Assembly (NCBI GenBank): GCA_965223845.1
Contig: CBDCXR010000004.1
Span: 1,760,001-1,824,000, forward strand
DNA: 64,000 nt
Direction: 5' to 3'
From: Planctomycetota bacterium
GTDB lineage: Bacteria; Planctomycetota; UBA8108; SXIK01
Positions 5,585-50,084 of the stretch are shown piece by piece. Below the pieces are notes generated by a model, which was given only the letters and a program-made list of their open reading frames with translations, was not told the origin of the DNA and made no database searches. Made by a program: the position numbers and the translations under genes. The number at the start of each line of letters is the position of its first letter. The first letter of the stretch is position 1.

Positions 5585-5677
5585 AGTACTCTCCGAAGCG
5601 GGAGGTCTCACTCCATCGTAGCACTAAGCATTTCCGGTCCGCCGTCCTTTCCCCCGCGATCCGAAGAGCGATCCCGC

Positions 5678-22174: not shown

Positions 22175-22277
22175 GGAACACGCGCCGGAAGTGGATCCAA
22201 CCTCTTCTGCGTGGGATGCAAACTGGACGGTAGACACCCTCTCCGACGGTGATCACCGACGGAGGGGAAGGAGATCG

Positions 22278-24518: not shown

Positions 24519-24595
24519 GTGTCTCGGGAGACTCCCGAACGCTCGCGCGAGCACGGAACGAATTCATCAACCCACGAGAAGAGATCAGCGAAGCA

Positions 24596-33312: not shown

Positions 33313-34032
33313 TTGCCCGAACTCGAAGTTCACGCCCTCTCTAAGGAATACCCCACCCCGGCCGAGCCGCTCGTCGTCCTCGATGGCGTCGAGTTCGAGC
33401 TCGAGATCGGCGACGCGGCGGCGATCACCGGTCCGTCCGGATGCGGGAAGAGTACCCTGCTCCACATCCTCGGCGCTCTCGACACGCCGACATCCGGTCG
33501 CGTCACACTCGGAGGCGAGGACCCGTCGACTCTGAACGAGACGGATCTCGCGCGCTTTCGCGGCGAGAAGATCGGATTCGTCTTCCAGGACCATCATCTT
33601 CTGCCGCAGTGCTCGGCGCTCGAGAACGTGCTCGTACCGACGCTCGTCGAGCGAAGTGCGGCCGCGTCGGGCGAGAAGCGCGCGCGCGACCTTCTCGAGC
33701 GTGTCGGACTCTCGGACCGCAGCGACCACCTGCCGTCCGAGCTCTCGGGAGGTGAGCGGCAGCGCGTGGCCATCGCTCGCGCGCTCATTCGGTCGCCGCA
33801 GCTTCTCCTTTGCGATGAGCCGACCGGGAACCTCGACCCGGCGAGCGCGCGCCACGTCGGAGACCTCTTTCTCGAGCTCGCGGGATCGCGCGACCACGCG
33901 CTCGTCGTCGTCACGCACAGCGTCGAGCTGGCCGAGCGTTTTCCCCGCCGCTTCGTTCTCGACGACGGGAAGCTCCGAGCAGTGGGCGACGAGGCCCGTC
34001 GCGACGCTCCGCGAGCGCCGACTGCGACATGA
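33313..34032 (+). CDS. ABC transporter ATP-binding protein, LolD/MacB-like
   Basis: GPSGCGKST, FVFQDHHL, LSGGERQR, CDEPTGNLD and VTH. TTG start follows GGAGG. Confidence 0.93.
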   Translation: MPELEVHALSKEYPTPAEPLVVLDGVEFELEIGDAAAITGPSGCGKSTLLHILGALDTPTSGRVTLGGEDPSTLNETDLARFRGEKIGFVFQDHHLLPQCSALENVLVPTLVERSAAASGEKRARDLLERVGLSDRSDHLPSELSGGERQRVAIARALIRSPQLLLCDEPTGNLDPASARHVGDLFLELAGSRDHALVVVTHSVELAERFPRRFVLDDGKLRAVGDEARRDAPRAPTAT

Positions 34033-37000
34033 GCTCCGGGCGTGCGTTCGATCTCCGCGCGCTCGCGCTCCGCGGACTCCGGTGGCACCGCCGCTCGTAT
34101 CTCGCTTCGGTAGCGATGATCGCCGTCGCGACGGCGGTCGTGACCGGCGCCCTACTCGTCGGTGATTCGGTGCGGGGAAGCCTGCGCGACCGCGCGCTCG
34201 AGCGTTTCGGCGCCGTCGACTTCGCTCTCTCGAGTCGCACGGGTTTCTTCCGCGAGGAGTTGCTGCGGGACGAGTCGTCTCAGGCTCGCAGCCCGGACCG
34301 TGGCGACGAGGACGGCGCCCGGGACGAGAGCTCGATCCGCGCGACGTCCGTCATCCTCCTCCGGGGGTCGGCGGTCCACGCAGAGTCGCGTCAGCGCTCC
34401 GCCCGCGTTCACATCATCGGAGTGGACTCGACGTTTTGGTCGTTCTGGGAGGAGACGGAGTCGCTCGCCGAGCCGTTTCGAGGCGAAGAAGGTCGGCGCT
34501 GGTGCTGGGTGAATCCCGCCCTCGCCGCCGCGATCGGCAGCGAAGCGACCGACACGCTCCTGCTCTCTCTCGGCAAGGCGGAGTCCGTCGCATCCGAACA
34601 CCTCCTCGGCGCGCGCGACGACGCCGTTCGCACGCTCCGAGTCGCGTGCCGCCGGGTGATCCCTGCGGCCGGTCCGGCGTACTTCCGGCTCGATCAGGGG
34701 CAGGACGATCCGCACGTCGTTTACGTTCCCCTCTCGTTTCTTCAGCGAACTCTCGAGCGAGAGGGGGAAGCGAACGTCGCTCTCATCGCGGCCGGCGGAC
34801 CACAGGACGAAGCCTCGAGCGCCCTGCGGGCGCGGATCCGCGAGAGGCTTCAGGTCGGAGATCTCGGACTCGCGGTGCGGTCGGTCGCAGCCCGGGGCGA
34901 TCCCGCGTCTCCGGAATCGGCGCGGAGCGAGCTCGTGCTCGAAAGTCGAGAGCTCGTGCTCCCGGACGCGGTCGTCGAATCCGCCGAGCAGACCGCGCGC
35001 GCGCTCGGGGCGACGACCCGCCGCGTGTTGACGTATCTAGCGAACACGGTTCGCGTCGGTGAGCGCGAGATTCCCTATTCGACGATCACTGCCGTCGAGG
35101 ATGGCGGTTCAGCGGAACGACTCTTCGCTGAAGCGGTGTCCGGACCGCTCGCCGGAGAGAGCATCGTCCTCAATGATTGGGCCGCCCGCGAGCTCGACGC
35201 GAAGGTGGGGGAGAGCGTGACCCTTCGCTACTTCGTCGTCGTCGCCGGGAATGAGCTGCGCGAAGCCGAGGCGACGTTTCAGCTCGCGGGAATCGTTCCG
35301 ATCGACGAGGGACCGTTCGACGCGTCCTGGACTCCGACCTTTCCCGGAATCTCGGACAGCGCATCGCTGCGTGACTGGGACCCGCCGTTCCCCGTCGATT
35401 TCGATCGCATCGAGGATCGCGATGAAGAGTACTGGGATGAGTACCGCGCGACGCCGAAGGGCGCGATCGCGCTCGCCGAGGGAATCGAGCTCTGGGCGAC
35501 GCGATTTGGGCGGGCGACGTCCGTGCGTGTCGACCCCGCGGAGACTGGGCTTTCGGCGGAGACGTTCGCGAGCGCCCTCCTCGATCGACTCGATCCCGGA
35601 GCGGCCGGACTTTCGCTCGACGCCGTCAAGGCTCGAGCCCTCACCGCCGCGCGCGGAGCGACGGATTTTGCGATGCTCTTCGTCGCGTTCAGCTTCTTTC
35701 TCATCGTGAGCGCCCTCGTGCTTCTCTCGCTCGTCTTTCGACTGGCGGCTGAGCTGCGCGCGCGCGAACTCGGTACGCTTCTCGCGACGGGGTTTACCGC
35801 ACGAGACGCGACGACGCTTCTTCTTCGCGAAGGGAGAGGGCTCGTGGTGATCGGCGCCATCGTCGGCGCGGTCGGCGGAGTCGGCTACGCCGCCGCGCTC
35901 GTCGCGGGCCTTCGCACGCTCTGGAGTGGGGCCGTCAGCGCGCCCTTTCTCGAGCTTCACGTCACCGCCGGCTCGATCGCGATCGGGCTCTCGGTGACAG
36001 CGATTCTCGCGTTCGCCGTCATCATCGTCGTTGCCCGGCGGATCACGAGGACTGCGCCCCGCGCTCTCCTCGCCGGTGTTACGCGCGACGACCCGGTTCT
36101 CAGGCGAACGTCGACCCGTAGCCGAGGCTTCGTCGTCGTCGCCGGCGGCGTTGCCTGCGCAGTGCTGACTCTTGTGGGGACGCTCGATGCGTGGGCCCCG
36201 GAGGCGTGCTTTTTCGGCGCGGGAGCGGCGGGTCTCGTCGCGGGACTCGCGGCGCTCGACGTCGCGCTCCGCAAGCTCGCGCCCCAGGGGTTCGCCGGTC
36301 GGGGCGTCCGCGCCCTGATCGTCCTCGGTGTGCGCAACGCGGGCCGTCGCCCGGCCCGTAGTCTCCTCACGGCGTCCGTGCTCGCCGTCGCGGCGTTCAT
36401 CGTCATCGCCGTGGCCGCACAGCGGCGCGATGTCCGGCACGACGATCCCCAGCGCGATTCCGGCGACGGCGGGTATTCGCTTGTCGCACGGTCGGCCGTG
36501 CCCCTCACACGCTCCCTCGGGTCACGCGACGGTCGGGAGGCCCTCAATCTCGTCGGCGCGGCGGATGCGCTGGTCGGTGCGGCGGAGATCCACGCGCTCC
36601 GCGTGAAGCCCGGTGACGACTCGAGCTGCCTCAATCTCTACCGACCGCAGTCTCCGCGCATCGTCGGTGTTGAGAGCTCGTTTCGCGCCGCGGGAGGTTT
36701 TCGTTGGGCGAAGACCCTCGCGGACTCCGCCGAAGAGCGCGCGAACCCGTGGCTCCTCCTAGAGCGCACGCTTCCGGACGGCGCGATTCCCGCGATCGCC
36801 GACCTCAACACCGCCCAGTGGATTCTTCACGTCGGACTCGGAGACGAGATCGAAGTCCTCGCGGAAGACGCTCGACCGGTGAAGATTCGCCTTGTCGGAC
36901 TCCTAGCTCACAGCATTTTCCAGAGCGAGCTCGTCATCGCATCGGAGACCTTCGTCCGCGCGTTTCCGCGCGAGACCGGTTGGAGTCAGTTCCTCTTTCG

Positions 37001-37523
37001 CACCGATGTCCCGAACGGACCCGCGCCCGTCGACCTTTCCGGCGCGCTCGAGTCGGCGCTCGCGGATTACGGGTTCGACGTTCGGACGACGGGGGAAGTC
37101 CTCGCGGCGTTCAAGCGCGTCGAGAACACGTACCTCTCAACGTTTCAGATCCTCGGCGGACTCGGACTCCTCCTCGGGACGCTCGGCCTCGCCGTCGTTC
37201 TCGTCCGCAACGTCAACGAGAGACGCGCGGAGATCGGGCTGCTGAGGGCGGTCGGGTATACGCCGGCCGCGGTGCGGTGGGTCGTTTTCAGCGAGACCGG
37301 CACGCTTCTGGCCGGTGGCCTCGTTGTCGGTGGCGGTGCCGCGCTGCTCGCGTCCGTGCCCGTTTTCTTGAGCGGCGCCGGCGAGGTATCGGTCTCCGGC
37401 GTGCTCGGGACGGTTGCGGTGATCGCCGCCGCCGGGCTCGGCGCCGCGGCTCTGTCCATGCAGCGCGCGCTCGCGAGCTCATCCCCGGTGGACGCCCTCC
37501 GGGGCGAGAGCCGTCCCCGCTAG
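34029..37523 (+). CDS. ABC transporter permease, duplicated FtsX/LolE-type (type VII) with two large periplasmic domains
   Basis: Two repeats of TM + periplasmic domain + R.RE.G.L.A.G(F/Y) + three TM helices. ATGA coupling to the ATPase. Confidence 0.9.
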   Translation: MSSGRAFDLRALALRGLRWHRRSYLASVAMIAVATAVVTGALLVGDSVRGSLRDRALERFGAVDFALSSRTGFFREELLRDESSQARSPDRGDEDGARDESSIRATSVILLRGSAVHAESRQRSARVHIIGVDSTFWSFWEETESLAEPFRGEEGRRWCWVNPALAAAIGSEATDTLLLSLGKAESVASEHLLGARDDAVRTLRVACRRVIPAAGPAYFRLDQGQDDPHVVYVPLSFLQRTLEREGEANVALIAAGGPQDEASSALRARIRERLQVGDLGLAVRSVAARGDPASPESARSELVLESRELVLPDAVVESAEQTARALGATTRRVLTYLANTVRVGEREIPYSTITAVEDGGSAERLFAEAVSGPLAGESIVLNDWAARELDAKVGESVTLRYFVVVAGNELREAEATFQLAGIVPIDEGPFDASWTPTFPGISDSASLRDWDPPFPVDFDRIEDRDEEYWDEYRATPKGAIALAEGIELWATRFGRATSVRVDPAETGLSAETFASALLDRLDPGAAGLSLDAVKARALTAARGATDFAMLFVAFSFFLIVSALVLLSLVFRLAAELRARELGTLLATGFTARDATTLLLREGRGLVVIGAIVGAVGGVGYAAALVAGLRTLWSGAVSAPFLELHVTAGSIAIGLSVTAILAFAVIIVVARRITRTAPRALLAGVTRDDPVLRRTSTRSRGFVVVAGGVACAVLTLVGTLDAWAPEACFFGAGAAGLVAGLAALDVALRKLAPQGFAGRGVRALIVLGVRNAGRRPARSLLTASVLAVAAFIVIAVAAQRRDVRHDDPQRDSGDGGYSLVARSAVPLTRSLGSRDGREALNLVGAADALVGAAEIHALRVKPGDDSSCLNLYRPQSPRIVGVESSFRAAGGFRWAKTLADSAEERANPWLLLERTLPDGAIPAIADLNTAQWILHVGLGDEIEVLAEDARPVKIRLVGLLAHSIFQSELVIASETFVRAFPRETGWSQFLFRTDVPNGPAPVDLSGALESALADYGFDVRTTGEVLAAFKRVENTYLSTFQILGGLGLLLGTLGLAVVLVRNVNERRAEIGLLRAVGYTPAAVRWVVFSETGTLLAGGLVVGGGAALLASVPVFLSGAGEVSVSGVLGTVAVIAAAGLGAAALSMQRALASSSPVDALRGESRPR

Positions 37524-37555
37524 CCGGAATGAAACCGCACATCCGACGGTGGAGT

Positions 37556-37584
37556 CTCCGCCGACGGCGTTCGGCGCGGCGGAG
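37556..37584. terminator. GC-rich hairpin between convergent transcripts (possible terminator)
   Basis: CTCCGCCG (37556-63) pairs with CGGCGGAG (37577-84). No U-tract. Confidence 0.3.
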
Positions 37585-37638
37585 GTCACCTGAGAGGCGG
37601 GATCCGCGCGGGCCGAGAGTCGGAAGTCTCTAGGCCGC

Positions 37639-37722
37639 TTACCGCGCGGGGCGGGTGTAGCGGAAGAGATCAGCGAAGGAGTTCAACAATCCGGCGAGAA
37701 GAGATCGCAGTGAACGCATCAT
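37639..37722 (-). CDS. Putative 27-aa amphipathic peptide MMRSLRSLLAGLLNSFADLFRYTRPAR
   Basis: ATGATG start preceded by GTGAGGTAGGC (SD-like) and an AT-rich tract; TAA stop. Below the ORF-track length cutoff. Confidence 0.45.
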   Translation of the reverse strand: MMRSLRSLLAGLLNSFADLFRYTRPAR

Positions 37723-38025
37723 GCCTACCTCACTTCTTTTCGCCCCGCCAAACAAAACACTAACCCAGACGCTCGTCCGTTCCCAGCCCAAACCTTAGGG
37801 CTCAGACCGGACCTTACGGCCCGGACCTTTACGGCACCGCGCAGCTCCGTCGAGCGGCTCGAGGCGGACATCCGTCTCGCCTGTGGGCAACGCTCGGCCG
37901 GACGCGGCGACGGCGGCACTCTTCGAACGGGATGCTCCGGATGGCCGGCGCCTCGAACCCTCTCGCCGTCCTCTGAGACCCGTGAGGACGACCCGAGCCG
38001 CTACCGTTACCGGAACTACGTTCAC

Positions 38026-38054
38026 TTGTTAAGTGTTTCACGCCCGGATGTCAA
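38026..38054 (-). promoter_or_regulatory. Putative sigma70 promoter TTGACA-N17-TAACAA facing the 27-aa ORF
   Basis: Perfect -35 hexamer at 38054-38049, 17-nt spacer, weak -10 at 38031-38026. Confidence 0.35.
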
Positions 38055-38058
38055 CCGT

Positions 38059-39873
38059 TCACCGGCTCGCCAGGCGGCCTAGCGCGCGCCGGAGGGCCGC
38101 TGCCGCGTAGACCGGAGGATAGAGGCGCTCGAAGTACCAGAGGTCGGCGAAGTAGAAGCCGATCGGGGTCGGATCCTCGAGTCCGCCCGCCTCGACCGTG
38201 CCCACGAGCCACTCGAGCCCCCGCTGGACGGCATCCTCGCCCGAGAGATCGCCGTCCGTTTCCGCCCCGAGCAACGCGTAGAGCGCGAGCGCCGACTCCT
38301 CGACGCTCGACGGCGCCCCGTGGTCGCCACCCCAGCCGCCGTCCTCGTTCTGCGCGTCGACGAGCCAACGCTGCGCGTTTCGCCGCACGGACTCCCCGAT
38401 CGGAACCTCCGCGTCCTCGAGGGCGATGAGGACCCGACTCGTCCCGTAGACGGGGCTCTCGTTCTGGGGGACGTGTTCGTTCCCGAACCAGAGCGGAAGC
38501 CACGCGCCGTCGGCCCGTTGCGTGCGCTCGAGGAATGCTCCCATCGCGCGAGTCGCCCGGTCGAGCCTCGGGGCGAGATCCGGAAACGTCCCGCGCCACG
38601 CGGAGAACGCTCGCAGGGCGTGAGCGGTCAGGTCCGCGCCGCTCCGATCGAACGGCAGCCGTCCCCAACCGCGGCAAAACGTCGGAATTCCACCGTCGCG
38701 ATTCTGCAGGTCGAGAAGCCAAGAGAGTCCCGCGGCCGAGGCGCGCCGCGACTCGGCATCGCCTTCGCCGAGGCACTTGAGAGCGAGGAGCGCACCCGCT
38801 GTATCGTCCGCGTCGGGAACGCCGCCGGGAAGATCGGTCCAAGCCCATCCCCCCGGCGCCGCCCCGGTGTACGGATGAACGGTTCGGTACTGCTGACTGA
38901 GAAGCCAACGGCGGATCGGTTCTCGGTCAGCGGGAGAGAGCGCGGACGCCCCCGCTTCAGCGAGCGCTCCAACCGCGAGCGTCGTCACCCAGGTCGCGAG
39001 ATCGGTGTCGATCGGCCAGCTTCCGTCCTTCCGTACTGAGTGCTCGAGGAACCGCGTCGCTTCGCGCACGACGGGGTGGCCCGCCGAACCGCTCGCGGCA
39101 AGACTCATCGTAACGAATGCCGTCAACGGCACCGCTTCGAGAAAACCGCCGCTCGCCGGCTGGATCTCGCGCAGAACGTTCAGCGTACGCGCGCGTGCCG
39201 CTGCGCGCGCCACTCGGGTCAAGGGATTCCGCGTGGGGCGATGGTGGTGGTGTACTTGCCCGACGGCGATCAAGGCCGGGAGGGCGTAGCTGACGACGGG
39301 AAGCCCGAGGAAACGAAACCAGCGACGGGGGAGCGCGGCGAGCTCGAACGGGAGAGACTTCACTGACCTCCAAGCATCGCGTCCCTCGCCTAGGCATCCG
39401 GCGAGGGCGCAGTGGGTGAGGATAGGCACGCTGAACGTTCGATCCTCACCGTAGACGGCGAGGATCGCCGCGGCGAGAGCGTCGGGCGAAGTCGAGCCGG
39501 CGCGCGCCGCGATCCAGTCCTCGGCACCCCGAATGGCGGACTCGACCTTCCCCTCTGACCGTGCGACCGCTCGCAGCGTCGCCCAACAGAGCGTCGTCGT
39601 GCTGATGTTGCTCCGGCTCGCCGGCGTGTCGCCCCAGCCGCCGTCCGTGTGAACGTTTTCCGCTAGCCAATGTGCTCCCCGCGCGACGAGCTCGCGGTGC
39701 TCCGGTCCACCGTGCTTCTCCACGAGTGCAAGCGCGAGAGTAGCGGTCGCGGTCGAGAGCGCACTCGTCGAGAGCTCGCCGCGCCAGTGGCCATCGGAAG
39801 TGCGTTCACCGAGCAGTCGCTGCTCGACGAGATCCGCGGCGCGCTTGAGTCTGTTGTCGAAGTCGTCCGTCAT
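38059..39873 (-). CDS. Squalene-hopene-cyclase-like class II terpene cyclase (beta-gamma didomain)
   Basis: GHWRGEL, DGGWG and GGWAW...VPDADDTA (DxDD). QW motifs QNRDGG, QRADGAW and QNEDGGWG; C-terminal IGFYF..LWY.E.LYP. Confidence 0.88.
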   Translation of the reverse strand: MTDDFDNRLKRAADLVEQRLLGERTSDGHWRGELSTSALSTATATLALALVEKHGGPEHRELVARGAHWLAENVHTDGGWGDTPASRSNISTTTLCWATLRAVARSEGKVESAIRGAEDWIAARAGSTSPDALAAAILAVYGEDRTFSVPILTHCALAGCLGEGRDAWRSVKSLPFELAALPRRWFRFLGLPVVSYALPALIAVGQVHHHHRPTRNPLTRVARAAARARTLNVLREIQPASGGFLEAVPLTAFVTMSLAASGSAGHPVVREATRFLEHSVRKDGSWPIDTDLATWVTTLAVGALAEAGASALSPADREPIRRWLLSQQYRTVHPYTGAAPGGWAWTDLPGGVPDADDTAGALLALKCLGEGDAESRRASAAGLSWLLDLQNRDGGIPTFCRGWGRLPFDRSGADLTAHALRAFSAWRGTFPDLAPRLDRATRAMGAFLERTQRADGAWLPLWFGNEHVPQNESPVYGTSRVLIALEDAEVPIGESVRRNAQRWLVDAQNEDGGWGGDHGAPSSVEESALALYALLGAETDGDLSGEDAVQRGLEWLVGTVEAGGLEDPTPIGFYFADLWYFERLYPPVYAAAALRRALGRLASR

Positions 39874-40015
39874 CGCGCGGCGGCGCCGCCCTCCTGTCGT
39901 TCGGCGAGCGACCTACGACAGGACCGCGACGACTCGTCGTAGAGCCTCGGTACGGAGGTGAGCTGCACTCGCCGGTTCGGTGTGCAGGACTCCCCGCGAG
40001 ACCGCGCGTTCGCGT

Positions 40016-40765
40016 TCAACCGCCCGCCCCCCGGATCTTCGTTCCCATCCATCCCGAACGCGTCCGCGTCGCGATCACGAGTCCCGAGCCAACTCCGCTG
40101 AGGCGCGCGACGAGTTCGCCTCCTTCGGACCAGATCGAGCTCCCGCCCGCGGTGTCGAGCGTCGTCGACGGAGCGCCGTGATTCGCGAGAACTACGGCCA
40201 TCGAGTGCTCCCGAGCGTATCCGGAGAGCTTCTCCGAGACCGACTCGAACTCCGCCGGCGAGAAGAGCACGCCCGCGAGGTACAGCGTCGCGCCGCGCGC
40301 CGCGGCACTCCGGGGATGGGACGCGTGATTCGTGTCGGCGCAGATCGCGACCGCCGCGACGTCGTGCCCGATTCGAGTGAGCGGGTCACGCTCAGCCGGA
40401 TCGAACACGTCCAGCTCGTCGCCCCCGAGGTGGCGCTTCGTGTAGATCGCCTCCCGGCCATCCGCCCCGACGATGAACGCGCCGATGTGAAGTCCCGACG
40501 CGAGCCGGATCGGCGCGCCGACGACGAGCGTCACGCCGTGCTCGGCGGCCGCGTCACGGAGCGGGGCCAGCCGGTCGTCGCGCTCGGAGAACGCGAGGGC
40601 GTCGGCGAGATCCAATTCGTATCCCGTGAGCGACAATTCGGGAAAGACGAGAAGCTGGACGTCGTGTGCCGCCGCGACCGCGACCAGTCGGATGTGACGA
40701 TCGAGGTTATCGCGAACATCTCCCCGGAGTGACTCGATCTGGGCGGCACCGACGGTCACGCTCAT
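40016..40765 (-). CDS. Carbon-nitrogen hydrolase (nitrilase/amidase superfamily)
   Basis: E-K-C triad in FPELSLTGY, YTKRHL and ICAD. Confidence 0.9.
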   Translation of the reverse strand: MSVTVGAAQIESLRGDVRDNLDRHIRLVAVAAAHDVQLLVFPELSLTGYELDLADALAFSERDDRLAPLRDAAAEHGVTLVVGAPIRLASGLHIGAFIVGADGREAIYTKRHLGGDELDVFDPAERDPLTRIGHDVAAVAICADTNHASHPRSAAARGATLYLAGVLFSPAEFESVSEKLSGYAREHSMAVVLANHGAPSTTLDTAGGSSIWSEGGELVARLSGVGSGLVIATRTRSGWMGTKIRGAGG

Positions 40766-40802
40766 CTCGCGCGTCCCTTTGTCCTTTAGCATCCGGCGCC
40801 TG

Positions 40803-41687
40803 TCAGAGACTCAAGTGACCGAGCGCGAGGAGCCCGTAGTACGTGTACTCGCAGTCGAGCGTGTCTTCGGCCCAGTGGCCGTAGAAGCTCCCGCGACTCG
40901 TCCAAAGGGTATCGATGAACTCGAGGCAATCGTCGCGAATCGAGTCGAGAGGACACTCGAGCGCAGCGAGCGCGTGGAGCGCCGTCGCCGTCGACAAGAG
41001 GTCGGGCACCGGCGTGCGCGGCCCGGCGCAGAATCCGCCGGCGCGACGGCAGCTACGGACGAGCCACTCGCCCGCCGAGGCGGGACAATCGATCCCGAGA
41101 GTCCGCGCGACGGTCACCGCGGCCGCCGTCGCGGGCGTCGCGCCCTCGGCGACGCGGGCGTCGTTCGCATAGCCTCCGTCGCTCTGCCGGCGTGCCGACA
41201 GAAACTCAGCGATCCGGGACGACGGGATTTCGCTCCCGAGGTCCTGGAGCGCACCGACGGCGAGAAAGACTCCGTAGACGTTCCCCATGTCCGCTCCGCG
41301 TTCGGTCGCGTAACCGCCGTCTGGGGTTCGGTGTCGGTCGATCTCGGCCTCGAAAGCGGCGCGGGCCGCGGTCGAAACCTCGAGCCCGCGGCTCGCCGTC
41401 GCTCGCACCGCAGAGGACAGATGGACGAGATCGAGGCTCGCGATCGTCTCCGGATCGGTGAAGGAGCACAGATACTCTCGCGTATCCGGAGGAAACTCCG
41501 TTCTCAGCGCGAGAAGGCATTCCGTGCCGAACAGCGTGTAATAGAGATCGGCCGCGCCGTCGCGATCACGAAACCCACCGTTCGGTGCGAGCTGGTCGAG
41601 AACGAACGCAGCGACGAGCTCCGTCGACTCACGCAGAAGCTGCGGCGCCAGTCTCGCGACCTGCAGCATTTCGAGTCTCATGCTCAC
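40803..41687 (-). CDS. Prenyltransferase/squalene-oxidase repeat (alpha/alpha barrel) protein
   Basis: Repeats NGGF..RDG.ADLYYT, DGGY, QSDGGY, AGGF...PDLLST and GSFYG...DCEYTYY. No DxDD. Confidence 0.82.
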   Translation of the reverse strand: MSMRLEMLQVARLAPQLLRESTELVAAFVLDQLAPNGGFRDRDGAADLYYTLFGTECLLALRTEFPPDTREYLCSFTDPETIASLDLVHLSSAVRATASRGLEVSTAARAAFEAEIDRHRTPDGGYATERGADMGNVYGVFLAVGALQDLGSEIPSSRIAEFLSARRQSDGGYANDARVAEGATPATAAAVTVARTLGIDCPASAGEWLVRSCRRAGGFCAGPRTPVPDLLSTATALHALAALECPLDSIRDDCLEFIDTLWTSRGSFYGHWAEDTLDCEYTYYGLLALGHLSL

Positions 41688-43353
41688 GGCACCAGCCCTT
41701 GATCTCGGCGTCGCCGAACATCTTGCCGATGACGCGCCGGAGGAGACCCTTCACGCTCGCGTTGCCGAGCGGCCAGAGAGACCGTATCGCCTCTTCCTTG
41801 TAGGCGTCGAAGAGCTCGCGGCAGCGAGCGACCGCGCCGAGCTCTTCCATGCGGCGCCGCACGGTGTCGGCGGGAACGGCCGCCTCGCGTCGCCAGAGTG
41901 CGTCGAAGAGCTCCCGATCGACTCCCTTCGCCTTTTCCCGCGCCACCGCGAGCGGAAGCGTCGGACGCAGAGCTTCGAGGTCGCCGGCCTCCGCCGTTTC
42001 GGCGAGATCGTCGAGGTCGTCGCGAATCTGGTACGCGATGCCGAGGGAGCGACTGAAATCCGTCACCACCTTCGCCGTCGCGTCGTCGCCGCCGCCGTAG
42101 AGAAGTCCGATCTGGAGCGCGACCTCGAATGCGGGCGCCGTCTTCTCGCGAAAGATGTTCACCACATCGATCGGCGCGAGTGGAGCGGGCCGGCGGGCCC
42201 AGCAGAGTTCTGCACCCTGGCCGCGGCAGAGCGTCCGGTGTCCTTCGGCCGCGACGCGAAGCATCGCGGCGCGCGTTTCAGGCGCCGCCTCGCACTCCGC
42301 GAGGATTCGGTACCCTTCGCCGATCAGAAGGTCGCCGACGTTGAGCGCGACCGGGACGCCGAGCTCGGCGTGGAGAGTCTCTTCGCCGTAGCGCACCGCA
42401 TCGTCGTCCTCGATGTCGTCGTGGACGAGCGATGCCTTGTGGAAACACTCGACGGCGATCGCGACGCGACGAAGATCGTCCGCGAGCTCCGCGTCGGGTT
42501 CCGCAGCGAGCGCCTGCTGCATCGCCACCGTCAGAATCGGACGCCAGCGCTTTCCGCTCCGTGCGAGCCAGGCGCGCGCGATCTCCTCCGTCTCCCCGGT
42601 CGGCTTGCCGAGAAGACGATCGAGCGACTCGCGCGTAAACCACTCGCGCACCTCGTCGCGGAGCGCGGCGAGGTCGAGGCGGCGCGTGCGATCGTCAGCC
42701 GTGAGCTGGATGACGTCCCAAATCCACTCCAGGTCGACGTTCGTATCCACGCAGTCGTCCTGCAGAAGCGGAATCGCCACGCCCGGGATCGCGGCCGCCT
42801 CCATGTACGGAAACGCGCGCTCGAGCACGCTGAGACAGCTCACCCCGACGATCGCATCGATCTTGCCGGTCTCGATGATCGACATCACGATGGGCGATCC
42901 CTCGGCGACCAGAACGGCGTAGCCGAGCCGCTCTGCCTCGGACTGGAGATCCTGAATCGAGCACATGCCGCACTTCTTGCAGAGGAGCCCGAACTCGTCG
43001 AAGGGCGCCGGACAGTGGGACTCGAGTCGGAGGCACTTCGGGAGGAGGAGAAGACGGCGCTCGAACGGAATCGTCGCGAGAGTCTCTCGCCAGAGCTCGT
43101 TGTTGAGAAGCACGCCGGTGAAGTCGACGAAGTTCTGGTCGATGCCAGTCTTCTTCAGAAGCTCGAGCGTCCTCTCACGCAGGGCGTCGATCGGAACCGG
43201 CGGAACGAGATCGTTCTCGGCGACGTAGCCGCGGACGAGTTCGCGCAGTCGCTCGCGCTCGGCGGCGGTCGCGGGGATGTTGCTCTGCGTGGGCCGACTC
43301 GGAATCTCGGCCGGCAGAGTCGGCAGCAGCTTGAGCGGAGGGGGGCTCGACAC
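41629..43353 (-). CDS. Polyprenyl-diphosphate synthase fused to an N-terminal Cys-rich DUF116-like domain
   Basis: N-terminal LLLPKCLR..CPA...CKKCG.C...GVSC...C. C-terminal GKRWRP, FARM SLVHDDIED, GD, GQ, KTA and SARM YQIRDDLDD. Confidence 0.88.
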   Translation of the reverse strand: MSSPPPLKLLPTLPAEIPSRPTQSNIPATAAERERLRELVRGYVAENDLVPPVPIDALRERTLELLKKTGIDQNFVDFTGVLLNNELWRETLATIPFERRLLLLPKCLRLESHCPAPFDEFGLLCKKCGMCSIQDLQSEAERLGYAVLVAEGSPIVMSIIETGKIDAIVGVSCLSVLERAFPYMEAAAIPGVAIPLLQDDCVDTNVDLEWIWDVIQLTADDRTRRLDLAALRDEVREWFTRESLDRLLGKPTGETEEIARAWLARSGKRWRPILTVAMQQALAAEPDAELADDLRRVAIAVECFHKASLVHDDIEDDDAVRYGEETLHAELGVPVALNVGDLLIGEGYRILAECEAAPETRAAMLRVAAEGHRTLCRGQGAELCWARRPAPLAPIDVVNIFREKTAPAFEVALQIGLLYGGGDDATAKVVTDFSRSLGIAYQIRDDLDDLAETAEAGDLEALRPTLPLAVAREKAKGVDRELFDALWRREAAVPADTVRRRMEELGAVARCRELFDAYKEEAIRSLWPLGNASVKGLLRRVIGKMFGDAEIKGWCREHETRNAAGRETGAAASA

Positions 43354-43383
43354 GGTGTTCAGTCTCCCGGTGCTTCTCTCTCG

Positions 43384-44271
43384 TCAAGAGGACTCGCCCG
43401 AAGGCGCGTCCGCGCTCCCAGTGTTCGGCCCTCGAGCTCCCGCCTCAGCGGCTCGGGCGCGAATCTCGTCCATCGACGGAAGCGACATCAGCACTTCCTC
43501 GGGGATGTCGAGATCGGACTGCAGCTTCTTCAGGCAGCGCATTCGCTCCTTGAGAGCCTTGCTCTCATCGCGCTCTTTCGAGAATCGCGACTCCGCCCGT
43601 CGATGGCGCTCCCGGAGAGCGCTGTAGATATCGCCGCCGAGTAGGGCGGAGATGTCGACCTTCATTTTCTCGCGCTCGACGTCCTCGTCACTCACGTTCG
43701 CGCCGTTGATGGGGCCGGCGCCGTATTTCGGGAAGAGGATGGCGACTTCCGGGCAAACCCGCGAGCAGGCCGGGCAGTTCGTCTTACACTTGTCCGGGTT
43801 CTTCACTTCGATCTGCGAATCCGCGTCGACCCCGTAGACGTCGAACAGGCAGAAGCTGAGGCACTGCATGCAGTTCGTGCAGCGCTCGAAGTCGATAACG
43901 GGAAACCACGGCTTCCACGCGCCCGGCTCGGGCGCACCGGCGTCTCGCGCCACGGATTCGACGAGCTCCGCCACGGCCGTCGGCTCGACCGAAGCGATGT
44001 CGTGCACTCCGTTGTGTTCGGCGGAGGATTCCGGCTTCTCGTCACGACCGTCGCGAAGAACGATCGTATCGGCCGGGAGAGCCTCGTTCCCTCCGCCCGC
44101 GAACGACGAGGCATCGCTGCCGGCGTACCGCACGGCGAAGCCCTTCTCGAGCACGGCCTTCAAGACGTCGCGCCGGCGCTCGACGGCCGCGTCCGAGTCG
44201 GCGACGGGGCCGCGCAAGAGCACGGGAACTCTCGCCCGCGAGGGGGCTGGGGTCGCTGCTTGGGGCGGCAC
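43384..44271 (-). CDS. 2x[4Fe-4S] ferredoxin-domain protein
   Basis: CTNCMQCLSFC and CKTNCPACSRVCP motifs. GTG start follows GGAGG. Confidence 0.85.
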   Translation of the reverse strand: MPPQAATPAPSRARVPVLLRGPVADSDAAVERRRDVLKAVLEKGFAVRYAGSDASSFAGGGNEALPADTIVLRDGRDEKPESSAEHNGVHDIASVEPTAVAELVESVARDAGAPEPGAWKPWFPVIDFERCTNCMQCLSFCLFDVYGVDADSQIEVKNPDKCKTNCPACSRVCPEVAILFPKYGAGPINGANVSDEDVEREKMKVDISALLGGDIYSALRERHRRAESRFSKERDESKALKERMRCLKKLQSDLDIPEEVLMSLPSMDEIRARAAEAGARGPNTGSADAPSGESS

Positions 44272-44349
44272 TGGGCTTCCTCCGACTCGGTCGGCTCCGC
44301 GGTTAGTGTTCCCGACCGAGCCGCGTCGCTCGGTCGCGCCGTCGTCGAT

Positions 44350-44721
44350 TCAGGTCTCCGCACTCGCGGGTCGCGCGGAAGGCTCGCGAAGAAGCGTCTC
44401 GACGATCGTCTTCGGATCCTCTTCGCGCATGTTGCAGATCTCGACCGGAGGTGCAGACTCCCCCTCAGCCAGCGGCGCTCCCGCCGCCTTGAAGAGCCAC
44501 TTCACCGACCGGGGAAAACAGGCCGCGATGCGAACCTCGGCGTTCGGTTCCGCCAATCGCGCGAGAGACGGGTCGCGCCGAGCCGAGAGTTCACACAGGT
44601 CGGCGACCGCCTCGAACGGTTCGCCCGAGCGGGCGAGCTCCGCGAGAACCGCATCCTTTACGCCAGGCGAGATGATCTTCGCGTAGGCGCAATGGCAGTA
44701 GAGGATCCGAGTCGGTGCCAT
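44350..44721 (-). CDS. Small Cys protein resembling the N-terminal Fe-S domain of HdrA
   Basis: YCHC...DLC...AACFPR...NMRE matches the HdrA-N pattern VCHC...MC...AACSPR...NIRE. Confidence 0.65.
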   Translation of the reverse strand: MAPTRILYCHCAYAKIISPGVKDAVLAELARSGEPFEAVADLCELSARRDPSLARLAEPNAEVRIAACFPRSVKWLFKAAGAPLAEGESAPPVEICNMREEDPKTIVETLLREPSARPASAET

Positions 44722-44779
44722 GAGAAGTACCACGAGATAAACCCCGGTCGAGGAGACGACTCTCGGGCCGAATCCCGAC

Positions 44780-44808
44780 ATGCTATCAGGATCGGCGGAG
44801 GATGTCAG
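44780..44808 (-). promoter_or_regulatory. Putative internal sigma70 promoter CTGACA-N17-TAGCAT
   Basis: 5/6 match at -35 (44808-44803), 17-nt spacer and 4/6 match at -10 (44785-44780), in the 210-nt gap before the Fe-S/terpene genes. Confidence 0.35.
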
Positions 44809-44931
44809 CTCCCGTGCCAGGGAAGCCAAGACGGGATAGGGAGTTACGTCGATTGCGCGGAGCTCGGAGCGCGCTCGGCGGCGGCCGGGCGCACGAGTCC
44901 CGAGATTCTCCTCGGGGCTTCGCTCCTCCCG

Positions 44932-46029
44932 TCATTCCTCCATGCGGTGCGTCGGCTGGGGCTCGCCCGGACGGAAGCTCTCGAGATCGTCGACCCGGAC
45001 GTCGGGGACCGAGATCTCCTCGAGGACCGACGCGACGGCTTCGCGGAGGACCGCGGGATCGGCCTCGGCGCGCAGATTGATGATCAGCTCGCCCGAACGA
45101 ATCGGGGTAGAGAGGCGCATTCCCGTCTCGGGGACGAATTCATTGCCGACGAGCTGACTCACCGCGAGCTCGCCGAGCACGGTACCGCTCGAGAGCGTGA
45201 GTTTCAGGTGCGCGATGTCGCGGACGTCACCCCGCAGGCGCTCCTGCAGCGACGCCATGATCCCGTCGACGAACGCGTTGCCGTCGAACTCTTCGGCGTG
45301 GCTCACGGTCGCGGTCGCGTTCAGCCACCCGAGGAGAGCCTCGCCCTCGCCGTAGATCGCGTAGTCGAGGTCCATCGCTTTCCCGCCCGGGAGATCCTCC
45401 GCGAGGATCCGATCGAGCCACGCGTCGAGGCCCTCGCCGCTCCGCGCCGAGACCTGAATCACGTCCGCACGCGCAAAGCGTTCCGCGAGAGCGCTCTCGA
45501 GCGCACGTCTCTCGTCCGGCGAGAGCAGATCGATCTTGTTGATCGCGATGAGGTGCGCCTCCTCGAGCTGCTTCTCGTAGATGTAGACGACTTTGCGCGA
45601 GAATTGCCGTCCGGATTCGAGCCCGAGTACCCGCATCGCTCGGCGCGGATCGACGAGCACGGTGAGCGGGGCGATCCGATAGCGCTCACCGTACATTCGC
45701 CGTAGCGGGTAACTGACCGAGGCGACGAGATCGGTGCAACTACCGACCGGCTCAGCGAGGAATACGTCGGGGCGATTCGCCGCGCTGAGATTGTCCGCCG
45801 CCGCGAGGAGGGAGCTGAACCGGCAGCAGAAACAACCGCCCGCGATCTCTTCAACGGCGTAGCCGCGCGCGCGGAGGAACCGCGTATCGACGAGGCCCTC
45901 TCCCTGATCGTTCGTGATCAATCCCACGGAGAGTCCCCGGGCGACGATCCGCTTCGCGAGCTCGGCGAGGGCCGTCGATTTACCCGCGCCGAGGAAGCCG
46001 CCGACCATGATGTAGTGTGCTCGATCCAA
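44932..46029 (-). CDS. CobW/COG0523-family G3E metallochaperone GTPase
   Basis: GGFLGAGKST, ITND.G, GGCFCC, EPVG and INKID. Confidence 0.9.
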   Translation of the reverse strand: MDRAHYIMVGGFLGAGKSTALAELAKRIVARGLSVGLITNDQGEGLVDTRFLRARGYAVEEIAGGCFCCRFSSLLAAADNLSAANRPDVFLAEPVGSCTDLVASVSYPLRRMYGERYRIAPLTVLVDPRRAMRVLGLESGRQFSRKVVYIYEKQLEEAHLIAINKIDLLSPDERRALESALAERFARADVIQVSARSGEGLDAWLDRILAEDLPGGKAMDLDYAIYGEGEALLGWLNATATVSHAEEFDGNAFVDGIMASLQERLRGDVRDIAHLKLTLSSGTVLGELAVSQLVGNEFVPETGMRLSTPIRSGELIINLRAEADPAVLREAVASVLEEISVPDVRVDDLESFRPGEPQPTHRMEE

Positions 46030-46059
46030 GGGATCCTCGAGTTTTCTCGTATCGGTGGG

Positions 46060-46566
46060 TCAGCAGTCGGCGCCACCCGCGCCGAGGTCCACTCCGCTCC
46101 GCCAGGGTTGCTCGAGCATCTTGTCGATCGTCGCGTGGAGCTGCGCGACGTATCCCTCGACGTCGACGGCCTTCGGATCGGGCGTCCCGCGGAGCGCGAA
46201 CAGCCAACCGTCGCCGTACGGATCCTTGCAGATCAGCTCGGGGTCCTCGCGGACGGCGGGATTCACGCCAGCGAATTCACCGCCCGCCACAGAATAGATA
46301 TCCGAGACCGCCTTAAACCCTTCGATCCAGCCGAGGGCCTGCGCGACCTCGACTTTTTGCCCCTCGTCGACTTCAAACTCGAACTCCACGATTTCGCCGA
46401 GCATTCGAGTTGCGAACCCGGTGAGTCCGACTCGCCACGTGGATGCGTCCTTCTCGTCGGGGCACGTGAGCCAGTAGTGCGAGAGCGTGTAGACGTACTC
46501 GCGGGGCAGTCGAGTCGAGAAGTGGTTTCGCTTGAAGCGAATCGGGCCGTCGTCCGGGGCGGTCAT
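46060..46566 (-). CDS. Glycine-cleavage H-protein-like (lipoyl-domain) carrier protein
   Basis: SHYW...RVGLT.FA..LG.I, IEGFKAVSD (lipoyl-site Lys), VN and DPYGDGWLF. No gcvT or gcvP in the window. Confidence 0.85.
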   Translation of the reverse strand: MTAPDDGPIRFKRNHFSTRLPREYVYTLSHYWLTCPDEKDASTWRVGLTGFATRMLGEIVEFEFEVDEGQKVEVAQALGWIEGFKAVSDIYSVAGGEFAGVNPAVREDPELICKDPYGDGWLFALRGTPDPKAVDVEGYVAQLHATIDKMLEQPWRSGVDLGAGGADC

Positions 46567-46580
46567 CGGTGTGACTTTTC

Positions 46581-47786
46581 TCAGCGCTCGCCGGTTGGAA
46601 GGCAGTGATCGGCGCGCGGGGCCGATCGGGGTCGAGCGCGCAGCTCGGTCACGGCCGCGATCACCGAGTCGGCGGCTCGCTCGATCTCGTCGGGCGTCGT
46701 CGTTCGTCCGAGACCGAATCGCAGCGACCCCTCCGCGGCCGCGCTCGAGCCGTAGAGCATCTGGAGGACGTAGGAGCCGGTTTGCTTCGCCGACGAACAC
46801 GCGGCGCCGGACGAGACCGCGACGCTGGGGATGGCGCGGAGGAGGTCCTCGCTGTGAACGCCGAATCCGACGCTCAGATTGTTCGGGAGACGATCCGTCA
46901 TCGTTCCGTGGAGGGTGACACCCTCGAGCCCCGTGCGCAGACGGTGCCAGAGGCGGTCCCGCAGTTTGGAGATGCGTTCGCTGTCGCGGTCTCGCTCCTC
47001 GGCGACGATCGCGGCCGCGCAGCCGAAGCCCACGATCCCCGGAACGTTGAGTGTTCCCGACCGCAGACCGCGCTCGTGTCCACCCCCGTCGATTTGCGCG
47101 CGCAGTCGCACCCGCGGCCGACGCCGGCGCACATAGAGGGCGCCGACGCCTTTCGGCCCGTACATCTTATGCGCGGAAAGCGAGAGGAGATCGACGCCGA
47201 GCTCGTCGACCCCGAGCGGAAGATGCGCTCCGGCCTGGGCGGCGTCCGAATGAAGGAGCGTGCCGTGCCGACGACAAATCGCCGAGATCTCTCGGAGCGG
47301 ATGCACCGTGCCGATCTCGTTGTTCGCGTACATGAGGGAAACGAGCGCAGTCTCGTCGCGAATCGCATTCTCGAGTCGATCGAGGTCGAGCGTTCCGTCC
47401 GCGTCGACTCCGAGATAGGTCACCTCGAACCCGTCTTCCTCGAGGCGTGCGCAGGTATCGAGAACCGCTTTGTGCTCGGTCCCACAGGTGACCAGGTGTC
47501 GTCCGCGCGCACCGGTCGCGGTCATGACGCCTTTGAGCGCGAGGTTGTTCGATTCCGTCGCGCCCGAGGTGAATACGATCTCGCGGGGATCCGCGGCGAG
47601 CAGATCGGCGACTTCCGCGCGTGCGCGCTCGACGTGGCGAGCCGCGGCCCGTCCGGCCGCGTGCTGTGCGCTCGCGGCGTTTCCGAACGTCTCCGCGAAC
47701 ATCGGGAGCATCGCTTCGACGACGCGGGGATCGCACGGCGTCGTCGCGTGGTGATCGAGATAAATCGGTGAAAATTCAGCGGCCAA
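46581..47786 (-). CDS. iscS: Cysteine desulfurase, IscS/NifS group I
   Basis: IYLDHHATTP, FTSGATESNN, EHKAV, ANNEIG, DAAQ, SAHKMYGPKG, RSGTLN and SSGAACSS. TTG start is estimated. Confidence 0.88.
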   Translation of the reverse strand: MAAEFSPIYLDHHATTPCDPRVVEAMLPMFAETFGNAASAQHAAGRAAARHVERARAEVADLLAADPREIVFTSGATESNNLALKGVMTATGARGRHLVTCGTEHKAVLDTCARLEEDGFEVTYLGVDADGTLDLDRLENAIRDETALVSLMYANNEIGTVHPLREISAICRRHGTLLHSDAAQAGAHLPLGVDELGVDLLSLSAHKMYGPKGVGALYVRRRRPRVRLRAQIDGGGHERGLRSGTLNVPGIVGFGCAAAIVAEERDRDSERISKLRDRLWHRLRTGLEGVTLHGTMTDRLPNNLSVGFGVHSEDLLRAIPSVAVSSGAACSSAKQTGSYVLQMLYGSSAAAEGSLRFGLGRTTTPDEIERAADSVIAAVTELRARPRSAPRADHCLPTGER

Positions 47787-48208
47787 GAGAGGTCCGAACG
47801 GGGACGTGGCGAGGTCGGAGAGCAGTCTCGGTGGTGGTCTACGCGGTGCCGGAGATTCTATCGCGACTCGCACGATCGATCCAAAACCGTCGGCGACGCG
47901 AGCCGCTTGGGCCGCGGCGGCCGCCCGAGCGTTTTCGGTACTTGTCGGGAGCGGTTCCCGACCGACCGCTCGCGACGAGCACCGGCGCGACTCCCGCGCG
48001 GCGGGGCGATTCCCGTCGCATCCTTCGGGCGAGGAGGATCTCAATCTTGCCCGCTCGAGTCCGAGCGCGCCTCGGCGCGCTGTGGGTCGAAATCCTTTCT
48101 TGTCCGGCAGCCGCCCTCTTATGATCACTCTGTCCCGACTTCAAACGCTGAGACAGCCGAGTCGAGTGACGTCGATTTCTCCATCTCTCCGCGACTCTCA
48201 CCAACGCG

Positions 48209-49513: not shown

Positions 49514-49526
49514 GTCGAATTCGGCC

Positions 49527-50084
49527 ATGACACCGACCGTTCAGCTGACGACTCTCCTCGATTCTTTCCCGGACGGTCCTTTCCGTTCGAGCGATCTAGA
49601 GCTCATCTCACCAGCCGAGGTGCCGGAGCCCTACGCGCGGCTCCTCGTCCACAACCACCACATGACGGTGACGCTCGAAGATTTCCACCGAGCGACGCTT
49701 TCTCTCCAGGTGCTTGGCGAGAAGCGGACGGACGACAGCTACACGCGGCGGCTCACGCTGAGCGTGGGCTCTCCTGAAGAAGACCGACGGGTCGTCCTCG
49801 CAGGAATCATGCGCATCGCGCTCGATCGCTGCAGCGACCGAGTACGGCACGAGATCCTCTCCGGGGCGACACCCCTCGGGCGAATCCTAATCTCGAATCG
49901 CGTTCTTCGCCGAGTCGAGTCCAACGCGTATCTTCGCGTGAAGCTGAGCGCGCCCATCCGGACGATGTTCGCGCTCGCCGATGACACCAAGGGGTTCGCC
50001 TACGGACGCATCGCGCGCATCTTCTGCGACGGTGAGCAGGCGATCGAGCTGCTCGAGATCGTTCCGCCGGAGCCGGAAGAATGA
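49527..50084 (+). CDS. Chorismate-lyase (UbiC/UTRA-fold)-like protein
   Basis: LLVH..HMT.TLE, YTRR..L, EILSGATPLGRIL, YGR and final LLEI resemble the chorismate pyruvate-lyase pattern. Confidence 0.6.
   Translation: MTPTVQLTTLLDSFPDGPFRSSDLELISPAEVPEPYARLLVHNHHMTVTLEDFHRATLSLQVLGEKRTDDSYTRRLTLSVGSPEEDRRVVLAGIMRIALDRCSDRVRHEILSGATPLGRILISNRVLRRVESNAYLRVKLSAPIRTMFALADDTKGFAYGRIARIFCDGEQAIELLEIVPPEPEE

Follow-up and report, generated by a model that had tools for sequence, protein, structure and literature searches.

A conserved operon in a Planctomycetota bacterium joins a DUF116-polyprenyl synthase, a single-barrel protein and a squalene-hopene-cyclase-like enzyme to redox, lipoyl and sulfur genes

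Results

A nine-gene operon with a terpenoid 3' end

We analyzed a stretch of 64,000 nucleotides (nt) from a Planctomycetota bacterium (assembly GCA_965223845.1, contig CBDCXR010000004.1, positions 1,760,001 to 1,824,000 of the forward strand; hereafter the window). Within it, a polyprenyl synthase, a 294-amino-acid (aa) protein with a single alpha/alpha barrel, and a class II terpene cyclase that resembles the squalene-hopene cyclases (SHCs) form the terpenoid end of an operon that is ancient and widely conserved. Assignments with Pfam and NCBIfam models place nine head-to-tail genes on the minus strand, from 38059 to about 47873. A preliminary description of this locus had presented the three terpenoid genes, between 38059 and 43353, as a terpene core. 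Their positions stand, and all three lie on the minus strand. The trio is the 3' end of the nine-gene operon, and that description had overlooked the DUF116 domain fused to the synthase, a hydrolase gene inserted among the three, and five further upstream genes of the conserved unit on the same strand.

The G+C content of this region is about 0.66-0.69, and codon-position G+C singled out one coding frame per gene. In order of transcription, the genes are:

46581-47873, minus strand: IscS-like cysteine desulfurase; start uncertain (GTG at 47873 or TTG at 47786; the longest open reading frame reaches 48128); Pfam Aminotran_5, 256.8 bits; NF010611 (IscS), 480 bits against a cut-off of 548
46060-46566, minus strand: GcvH-like protein, 168 aa, ATG at 46566; Pfam GCV_H, 77 bits; TIGR00527, 78 against a cut-off of 116
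44932-46029, minus strand: CobW/COG0523-type GTPase, 365 aa, with a GCFCC motif; Pfam cobW, 84.3 bits
44350-44721, minus strand: orfX, small Cys4 protein, 123 aa, ATG at 44721; invariant C9, C11, C43 and C68
43384-44271, minus strand: ferredoxin-domain protein, 295 aa, with two 4Fe-4S motifs; several Pfam Fer4 families
41629-43353, minus strand: DUF116-polyprenyl synthase fusion, 574 aa; Pfam DUF116, 128.3 bits, and polyprenyl_synt, 144.9 bits
40803-41687, minus strand: single alpha/alpha barrel, 294 aa; Pfam Prenyltrans, 51.7 bits against a cut-off of 26.5
40016-40792, minus strand: carbon-nitrogen hydrolase (nitrilase superfamily), 258 aa; Pfam CN_hydrolase, 77.7 bits
38059-39873, minus strand: SHC-like class II terpene cyclase of beta-gamma architecture, 604 aa; SQHop_cyclase_N, 82 bits, and SQHop_cyclase_C, 130 bits

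The intergenic gaps in this operon measure 10 to 210 nt, and the barrel and synthase genes share 59 nt at the 5' end of the former. A consensus scan of 37400-48400 for promoters and terminators returned nothing above shuffled sequence. The hydrolase gene sits between the barrel and cyclase genes, 10 nt after the former. As tblastn found a counterpart of it in none of the 80 related loci described below, neither at the same position nor elsewhere, we consider it a local, lineage-specific insertion that lies outside the conserved set.

Gene order is conserved across phyla

We scanned a profile of the barrel family against one genome per species (species-representative genomes) and found that a barrel relative is encoded in at least 566 of at least 582 matched stretches. 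Gene neighborhoods were then counted by tblastn with the proteins of the window in the best 80 of these at least 582 stretches, which come from Acidobacteriota, Planctomycetota, Verrucomicrobiota and Abditibacteriota (Abditibacteriaceae), with one Sumerlaeota record. Among these 80 loci, we found the DUF116-synthase in 55, the cyclase in 50, the ferredoxin protein in 42, orfX in 41, CobW in 38, the GcvH-like protein in 37 and the desulfurase in 29, and every operon gene that was found lies on the strand of the barrel gene and in the order seen in the window.

To account for truncated contigs, we also counted within loci that have sufficient flanking sequence. Of 75 loci with at least 2.5 kilobases (kb) of downstream sequence, 48 have the cyclase gene after the barrel gene and on its strand. 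Of 65 loci whose upstream sequence reaches at least 2 kb, 48 have the DUF116-synthase gene before the barrel gene and on its strand, and in 38 the two genes abut or overlap. This arrangement of cyclase, barrel and synthase genes is far beyond chance. Where the synthase is present and the upstream sequence reaches at least 7.2 kb (37 loci), ferredoxin (34), orfX (34), CobW (32), GcvH (32) and desulfurase (25) genes recur, and cyclase, synthase, ferredoxin, orfX, CobW and GcvH are all present in 28 of 45 full-flank loci.

Two additional genes accompany the operon in related genomes. A 398-aa radical S-adenosylmethionine (SAM) protein of the SPASM/NirJ kind is encoded in 38 of the 42 loci with both ferredoxin and synthase, usually between these two, and a short, divergent LplA-family gene adjoins the desulfurase in 19 of the 29 desulfurase-bearing loci, mostly on the opposite strand. 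These LplA-like genes score 60-91 bits against a TIGR00545 cut-off of 280. Across the flanks of 14 related loci, there were no shared genes beyond the operon. We conclude that the operon is ancient and widely conserved and that its gene order is conserved across phyla. Its extent and conservation constitute the novelty of this locus, and a link between terpenoid genes and redox, lipoyl and sulfur genes was not found in our literature searches.

We considered whether two unrelated modules merely travel together, such that the upstream genes are a lipoate and iron-sulfur (FeS) maintenance set outside terpenoid chemistry. The upstream genes do belong to general families (IscS-like, GcvH, CobW, ferredoxin), the trio of synthase, barrel and cyclase stands alone in two Chthoniobacter loci (L062 and L079), and the barrel gene stands alone in eight Verrucomicrobiota loci. 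However, order and strand are kept in the 28 of 45 full-flank loci, across four phyla, while the outer flanks are wholly unconserved; the synthase and the Cys-rich DUF116 domain form a single polypeptide; and the genes in the window are tightly spaced or overlapping. Given these data, we regard an accidental pairing of modules as unlikely.

The desulfurase and synthase of the window are nearest to those of the Planctomycetota loci L017 and L072 (56-66% identity, versus about 40% and 60% for most others), and its cyclase is nearest to those of L008, L072 and L017 in the tree described below, not to those of Vicinamibacterales loci. The flanking genes of the window look acidobacterial, in contrast to the operon genes.

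The polyprenyl synthase is fused to DUF116

Residues 65-214 of the synthase open reading frame (ORF) correspond to DUF116 and contain seven conserved Cys, including a CxxCxxC motif. The synthase domain spans approximately residues 240-545, with the Pfam polyprenyl_synt match (cut-off 27) extending over 256-491, and it contains two aspartate-rich motifs, DDIED at 312-316 and DDLDD at 445-449, in which D312, D313, D316, D445, D446 and D449 are invariant. The first of these motifs lies in the context HKA307-S308-LVH-DDIED, and A307, S308 and F304 are invariant in 27 sequences, which bears out the earlier observation of small residues (A, S) at positions -5 and -4 before this motif.

The closest solved relatives of the synthase are archaeal-type geranylgeranyl diphosphate (GGPP) synthases, namely P. 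horikoshii GGPP synthase 1wy0 (135.7 bits) and 5jfq (123.6 bits), and 1wy0 carries a Tyr at -5, where the family of the window synthase has Ala307. In mutagenesis of archaeal GGPP synthases, a small residue at -5 is reported to allow products longer than C20 and a bulky residue at -8 to limit further growth of the chain. Because the synthase has Ala at -5 instead of an aromatic cap and Ser at -4, but an invariant Phe304 at -8, we suggest with low confidence that its product extends beyond C20, probably to about C25-C30.

The same fusion of DUF116 to a polyprenyl synthase was noted in 2015 in Pirellula staleyi Psta_0175, and the accessible text of that paper predicts a role in electron transfer for DUF116, as a metal-binding domain of flavodoxin-like type (PMC5898192). 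A cluster of a Bipolaricaulota isolate contains, according to the accessible part of a preprint, separate genes for DUF116, IspH, SHC, HpnH and a polyprenyl synthetase (bioRxiv 10.1101/2025.11.21.689855). A prediction of a complex between the full-length DUF116-synthase and the barrel, made with no controls, scored 0.00 and speaks neither for nor against binding.

The best NCBIfam match of the synthase (41629-43353) is a family 2 encapsulin cargo model (125.6 against a cut-off of 450), and the desulfurase, taken at its longest extent (46581-48128), also matches a family 2 encapsulin cargo model (117.5 against a cut-off of 800). No encapsulin shell-protein family turned up among the scanned ORFs of the window, where no search was aimed at shells.

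The cyclase is separated from squalene-hopene cyclases

The cyclase retains the features that the preliminary description had ascribed to it, a DADDT motif and QW repeats. Of 47 family sequences, at least 90% retain the motif (D354-A-D-D-T, residues 354-358), and three strict Q-x(2-5)-G-x-W/F motifs are found at Q238, Q452 and Q508, with looser ones besides. The protein scores far below the curated cut-offs of TIGR01507 (hopene cyclase; 122 versus 431 bits), TIGR01787 (squalene/oxidosqualene cyclases; 127.8 versus 322.7) and TIGR03463 (oxidosqualene cyclase; 102.3 versus 851). Its best match among solved structures is the SHC of A. acidocaldarius (PDB 1gsz/2sqc), with 76 bits over residues 222-596; DADDT aligns to the DVDDTA of SHC, and counterparts of the His of 'DVTAH' and the Tyr of 'LYGT' are kept. 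Identity to annotated plasmid shc genes is 25-33% over 30-42% of the query. The plasmid collection held no member of the cyclase family, and its 46 distant SHC records were all below 60% identity, with none covering 80% of the query.

We built a quick maximum-likelihood tree from the window cyclase, 46 of the 48 operon-linked cyclases (two truncated sequences were dropped), four annotated SHCs and two Bacillales cyclases. The operon-linked cyclases, 47 in all with that of the window, fall on one side of a very long branch with SH-aLRT support of 100, while the four SHCs and the two Bacillales cyclases fall on the other. Thus, of the phylogenetic placement that the preliminary description had proposed, the part covered by this quick tree sets the cyclase apart from annotated SHCs.

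In the annotated shc loci that we used for contrast, hpnC, hpnD and hpnE lie beside shc in two, and hpnD lies beside it in a third. We detected no SQS_PSY, UbiA or amino-oxidase domain among the ORFs called in the 64-kb window, nor among the ORFs scanned in the flanks of 14 related loci (121, and a further 5 of L022), in agreement with the earlier remark that neither squalene synthase nor UbiA is encoded nearby. The cyclase shares with SHCs that are accompanied by hpnCDE (A. acidocaldarius SHC; plasmid loci L081, L082 and L084) the beta-gamma fold, the DxDD motif, its His and Tyr partners and the QW-type repeats, and differs from them in its 76-bit score to the solved SHC, its position below the cut-offs, its separate clade, and the lack of squalene-synthesis genes nearby.

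These data bear on whether the locus could serve ordinary hopanoid synthesis, with a divergent SHC, a farnesyl diphosphate synthase feeding HpnCDE or Sqs encoded elsewhere, and the barrel as an accessory. The DxDD motif, the two-domain architecture and the QW-like motifs would suit such a role, some sources label family members 'squalene--hopene cyclase', and our negatives for squalene supply cover the window and the flanks of 14 loci. In addition, a polyprenyl synthetase gene lies beside a genuine shc in a Streptomyces locus (L082), so that a synthase beside the cyclase does not by itself exclude squalene. Opposed to this are the score of 122 bits where the curated hopene-cyclase model requires 431, the long and fully supported branch that separates the cyclase from annotated SHCs, the lack of any hpnCDE or sqs domain in the window or in the flanks of the 14 related loci, and the Ala at -5 of the synthase, unlike the aromatic residue of its closest short-chain relative. 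The accessible text of two published surveys likewise holds the clade distinct from SHC (PMC7306690, PMC12414744). On balance, we find a hopanoid pathway improbable. Cyclization of a non-squalene substrate, as the preliminary description had put forward, would fit the scores, the supported branch and the lack of nearby squalene-synthesis genes; it is a reasonable proposal, but one that was already published in 2020.

The cyclase resembles a published SHC-like clade

The accessible text of Santana-Molina et al. (2020; PMC7306690) describes an 'SHC-like' clade in which planctomycetal members keep the catalytic residues, notes that a polyprenyl synthase is usually found near these cyclases, and proposes a precursor other than squalene as likely. 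As far as this text and that of a 2025 survey in Mol Biol Evol (PMC12414744) are accessible, the clade ranges over the PVC group, the FCB group, Spirochaetota and Acidobacteriota, and its function is called unknown. In the accessible sections of the 2025 survey, the function of the clade is described as not demonstrated, its substrate is expected to constrain reconstruction of cyclase evolution, Rhodopirellula lusitana WP_283431395.1 is listed in the supplement as a representative, and epoxy-polyprenyl cyclases, including the meroterpenoid cyclase Lon15, are placed as the sister of this clade.

The window cyclase agrees with the published clade in its PVC/Acidobacteriota range, two domains, length (550-700 aa), conserved catalytic residues and nearby polyprenyl synthase, and nothing contradicts its membership. 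Because of this agreement, we infer that it belongs to the clade. The barrel gene, the DUF116 fusion and the upstream redox and lipoyl genes are not described in the accessible text of PMC7306690 or PMC12414744.

Among the closest characterized systems are the sesquarterpene pathway of Bacillus (HepS/HepT, YtpB, SqhC), Lon15 and AtoE, in which a class II cyclase acts on a head-to-tail chain from a dedicated polyprenyl synthase. In contrast to these systems, the operon has neither a YtpB-type class I synthase nor a conserved epoxidase. The DxDD motif of the window cyclase is of the alkene-protonating type, and the two Bacillales cyclases group with SHC and not with the clade of the window cyclase.

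The 294-aa barrel lacks known catalytic residues of its relatives

The AlphaFold2 model of the 294-aa protein (mean pLDDT 96.6) is a single helical barrel. Together with the Pfam Prenyltrans match and the absence of DxDD, this confirms the earlier characterization of the protein as a lone prenyltransferase-fold barrel; its sole DxD (D41-R-D43) lies in a loop. The family is large and well conserved, with 6395 of 8000 scored candidates passing E 0.001 and a cross-phylum identity of about 50-55%. The best Foldseek matches are RabGGTase beta subunits (template modeling (TM) score 0.73-0.75, with 0.75 to 3c72_B and 6j74_B; root-mean-square deviation 3.3-3.6 Å, 17-18% identity), followed by MstE-type single-domain cyclases (TM 0.62-0.65, E about 1e-5 to 6e-7). 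A search of a protein atlas returned the family itself and unnamed relatives, and a search for longer, fused forms, itself weak evidence, gave two weak matches and no common fused form.

A profile alignment was used to compare the barrel with RabGGTase beta. Barrel D229 matches the Asp of 'LPDV', and an invariant Leu231 occupies the position of the Cys two residues later. Tyr49/50 is aligned with the His of 'DPFHT', and non-basic residues stand opposite the Arg and Lys of 'RPEK'. We take the aligned Asp, Cys and His of RabGGTase beta to be zinc ligands and the Arg and Lys of RPEK to be diphosphate-binding residues. By this alignment, the zinc or diphosphate site that the preliminary description had suggested looking for is incomplete: one of three zinc ligands is kept and the aligned Arg and Lys are absent. 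In addition, no gene for an alpha subunit (helical-repeat protein) was found in the operon of the window or of L022. The barrel has in common with protein prenyltransferase beta subunits (RabGGTase, GGTase-I, FTase) the alpha/alpha barrel and a PF00432 score above cut-off, and differs from them in having Leu and Tyr in place of the Cys and His ligands, in lacking the aligned Arg and Lys, and in having no alpha-subunit gene.

The barrel is also a remote homolog of the beta domain of the neighboring cyclase family (profile-profile comparison by hhalign, probability 83.6%), an alignment in which the DADDT of the cyclase lies opposite a loop of the barrel. It has the single barrel of about 300-350 aa found in MstE-type single-domain class II cyclases, but is without their DxD(D) acid motif, and its TM score to them is lower than to the prenyltransferases. 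Judged from its sequence, the barrel appears to be without the known catalytic apparatus of both prenyltransferases and class II cyclases.

These features make it possible to evaluate the meroterpenoid model advanced in the preliminary description, in which the barrel is a soluble prenyltransferase that replaces UbiA and acts on an aromatic acceptor, after which the cyclase closes the prenylated aromatic in the manner of MstE. The prenyltransferase-beta fold with a score above the Pfam cut-off, the lack of UbiA in the window and in the flanks of 14 loci, and a sister clade that includes the meroterpenoid cyclase Lon15 (accessible text of PMC12414744) are compatible with this model. Its central assignment is unsupported, however, as the barrel keeps a single one of three zinc ligands and none of the aligned diphosphate-binding residues. 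In the operon and in the flanks of 14 loci, we found no gene that makes an aromatic acceptor, and the model leaves the conserved redox and lipoyl genes unexplained. Known enzymes of the prenyltransferase-beta fold, to our knowledge, alkylate protein thiols and not aromatic rings, which also counts against it. We consider this model unlikely.

The upstream genes suggest electron, thiol or sulfur chemistry

In the GcvH-like protein, the lipoyl-lysine motif EGFKAVSD is kept across 37 sequences, and the ferredoxin-domain protein has a C-terminal helical extension that is conserved in 43. The AlphaFold2 model of orfX (mean pLDDT 91.7) has an alpha/beta fold whose best Foldseek match is a weak one to MvhD, the 2Fe-2S subunit of the Hdr/Mvh heterodisulfide reductase complex (E 7e-3, TM 0.40). 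In L020 and L047, orfX and the ferredoxin gene form one fused gene. No Pfam family matched orfX even at E up to 1, with a credible match in 0 of 24 members, and the protein atlas returned unnamed clusters for it. Taken as a whole, the desulfurase, GcvH-like protein, CobW, orfX, ferredoxin, DUF116, radical SAM and LplA-like proteins read as an electron-, thiol- or sulfur-handling set around a lipoyl-type carrier, and any mechanism proposed for the operon must account for these conserved redox, lipoyl and sulfur genes.

One alternative mechanism is thiol prenylation, in which the barrel S-alkylates a Cys residue of orfX, the GcvH-like protein on its dihydrolipoyl arm, or a small thiol derived from a persulfide, with the desulfurase and FeS proteins giving sulfur or reducing power and the product being a protein-bound or sulfur-linked cyclic polyprenoid. 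In its favor, the nearest solved structures of the barrel are protein prenyltransferase beta subunits (TM 0.73-0.75), and the barrel is conserved together with the desulfurase, a GcvH-like carrier with its lipoyl-lysine, the Cys4 protein and, often, an LplA-like ligase. The thiol-activating zinc site of the known enzymes is incomplete in the barrel, however; no alpha-subunit gene accompanies it; and two loci contain the terpenoid trio without the upstream genes. We give thiol prenylation little credence.

A proposed route to a cyclized head-to-tail polyprenoid

From these analyses, we favor with moderate confidence the explanation that the trio is the terpenoid end of an ancient conserved operon, that its cyclase is a member of the published 'SHC-like' clade, and that the product is a cyclized head-to-tail polyprenoid. 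Under this explanation, the synthase domain would elongate an allylic diphosphate head-to-tail past C20, probably to about C25-C30. The barrel may then bind or hand over the hydrophobic chain or modify its head group, a role that we propose because both the acid motif of the cyclases and the zinc and diphosphate residues of the prenyltransferases are absent from it. The cyclase would protonate the terminal isopropylidene via DADDT and fold the chain into a polycyclic 'regular' polyprenoid that is not a hopanoid, and the upstream electron, thiol and sulfur module would serve a further step, which may act on the diphosphate head group.

Several points weigh against this explanation. With respect to the operon, the 80 loci were chosen as top matches to the query, which biases them towards close relatives. 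Not every locus pairs the terpenoid genes with the upstream module, since two Chthoniobacter loci have just the trio and eight Verrucomicrobiota loci just the barrel gene. Moreover, the window itself contains neither the radical SAM/SPASM gene of the operon, for which tblastn gave noise (E 1.1), nor the LplA-like gene. With respect to the enzymes, membership of the cyclase in the published clade is inferred from shared features; the NCBIfam chain-length models all score below cut-off against the synthase (at best 125.6 versus 450); the estimate of chain length depends on the mutagenesis of archaeal GGPP synthases; and the role of the barrel is argued from missing residues and not from a positive feature. 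For hpnCDE, sqs and a second cyclase, the analysis of this genome covers the 64-kb window, and the Streptomyces hopanoid locus also has a polyprenyl synthase beside its shc. Finally, the product, substrate and activity of the family are predictions from sequence.

If the product is a cyclized head-to-tail polyprenoid, the operon would specify a new class of bacterial membrane lipid and be a candidate source of orphan hydrocarbon fossils. The clade of the cyclase is widespread in soil and freshwater bacteria. Tricyclohexaprenol-type lipids are, in the accessible text of PMC9247107, postulated precursors of the tricyclic terpanes known as 'orphan biomarkers'. A more specific and speculative proposal, which we rate as improbable as it stands, is that the operon is the source of regular polycyclic polyprenoids of this tricyclohexaprenol type, and that the FeS, lipoyl and sulfur module, acting via the fused DUF116, carries out a reductive or thiol-dependent step on the head group that would be without characterized precedent. 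The conserved link to the upstream genes also suggests that the three 'core' genes expressed alone may not give the natural product.

Neighboring genes and other loci

Divergent from the operon, the plus strand at 48209-51343 encodes a HemN-like radical SAM protein (48209-49513), an ORF of no family (49527-50084) and a flavin enzyme (50081-51343) that matches halogenase, QhpG and geranylgeranyl-reductase models, each below cut-off. This set of three recurs in four Vicinamibacterales loci (L026, L032, L035 and L068), some few kb past the cyclase gene, and in no other of the 80. We considered the HemN-like protein as a candidate for the radical SAM protein of the operon and ruled it out, as its BLASTP score against that of a related locus (L022:7103-8299) was 23 bits.

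Just downstream of the cyclase gene, on the opposite strand (33313-37523, plus), are genes for an ABC ATPase and then a 1164-aa duplicated FtsX-type permease, whose match to the 'ADOP' acidobacterial permease model, at 57.7, is well short of the cut-off of 622.3. Further away, several PQQ/BamB-type beta-propellers are encoded at 22149-26215 and 29863-31443 (plus), interleaved with genes for acyl-CoA ligase-like, aldehyde dehydrogenase and iron alcohol dehydrogenase proteins. CotH kinase domains occur in two large proteins, at 1178-5611 (minus) and 61719-63905 (minus), the former of which also contains lamin-tail, laminin-G and chitobiase-C domains. Among the related loci, a flanking ORF of a Verrucomicrobiota locus (L075:972-1712, plus) matches the Pfam family of the anthrax lethal factor N/C-terminal domain (E 8.5e-8, 32.6 bits).

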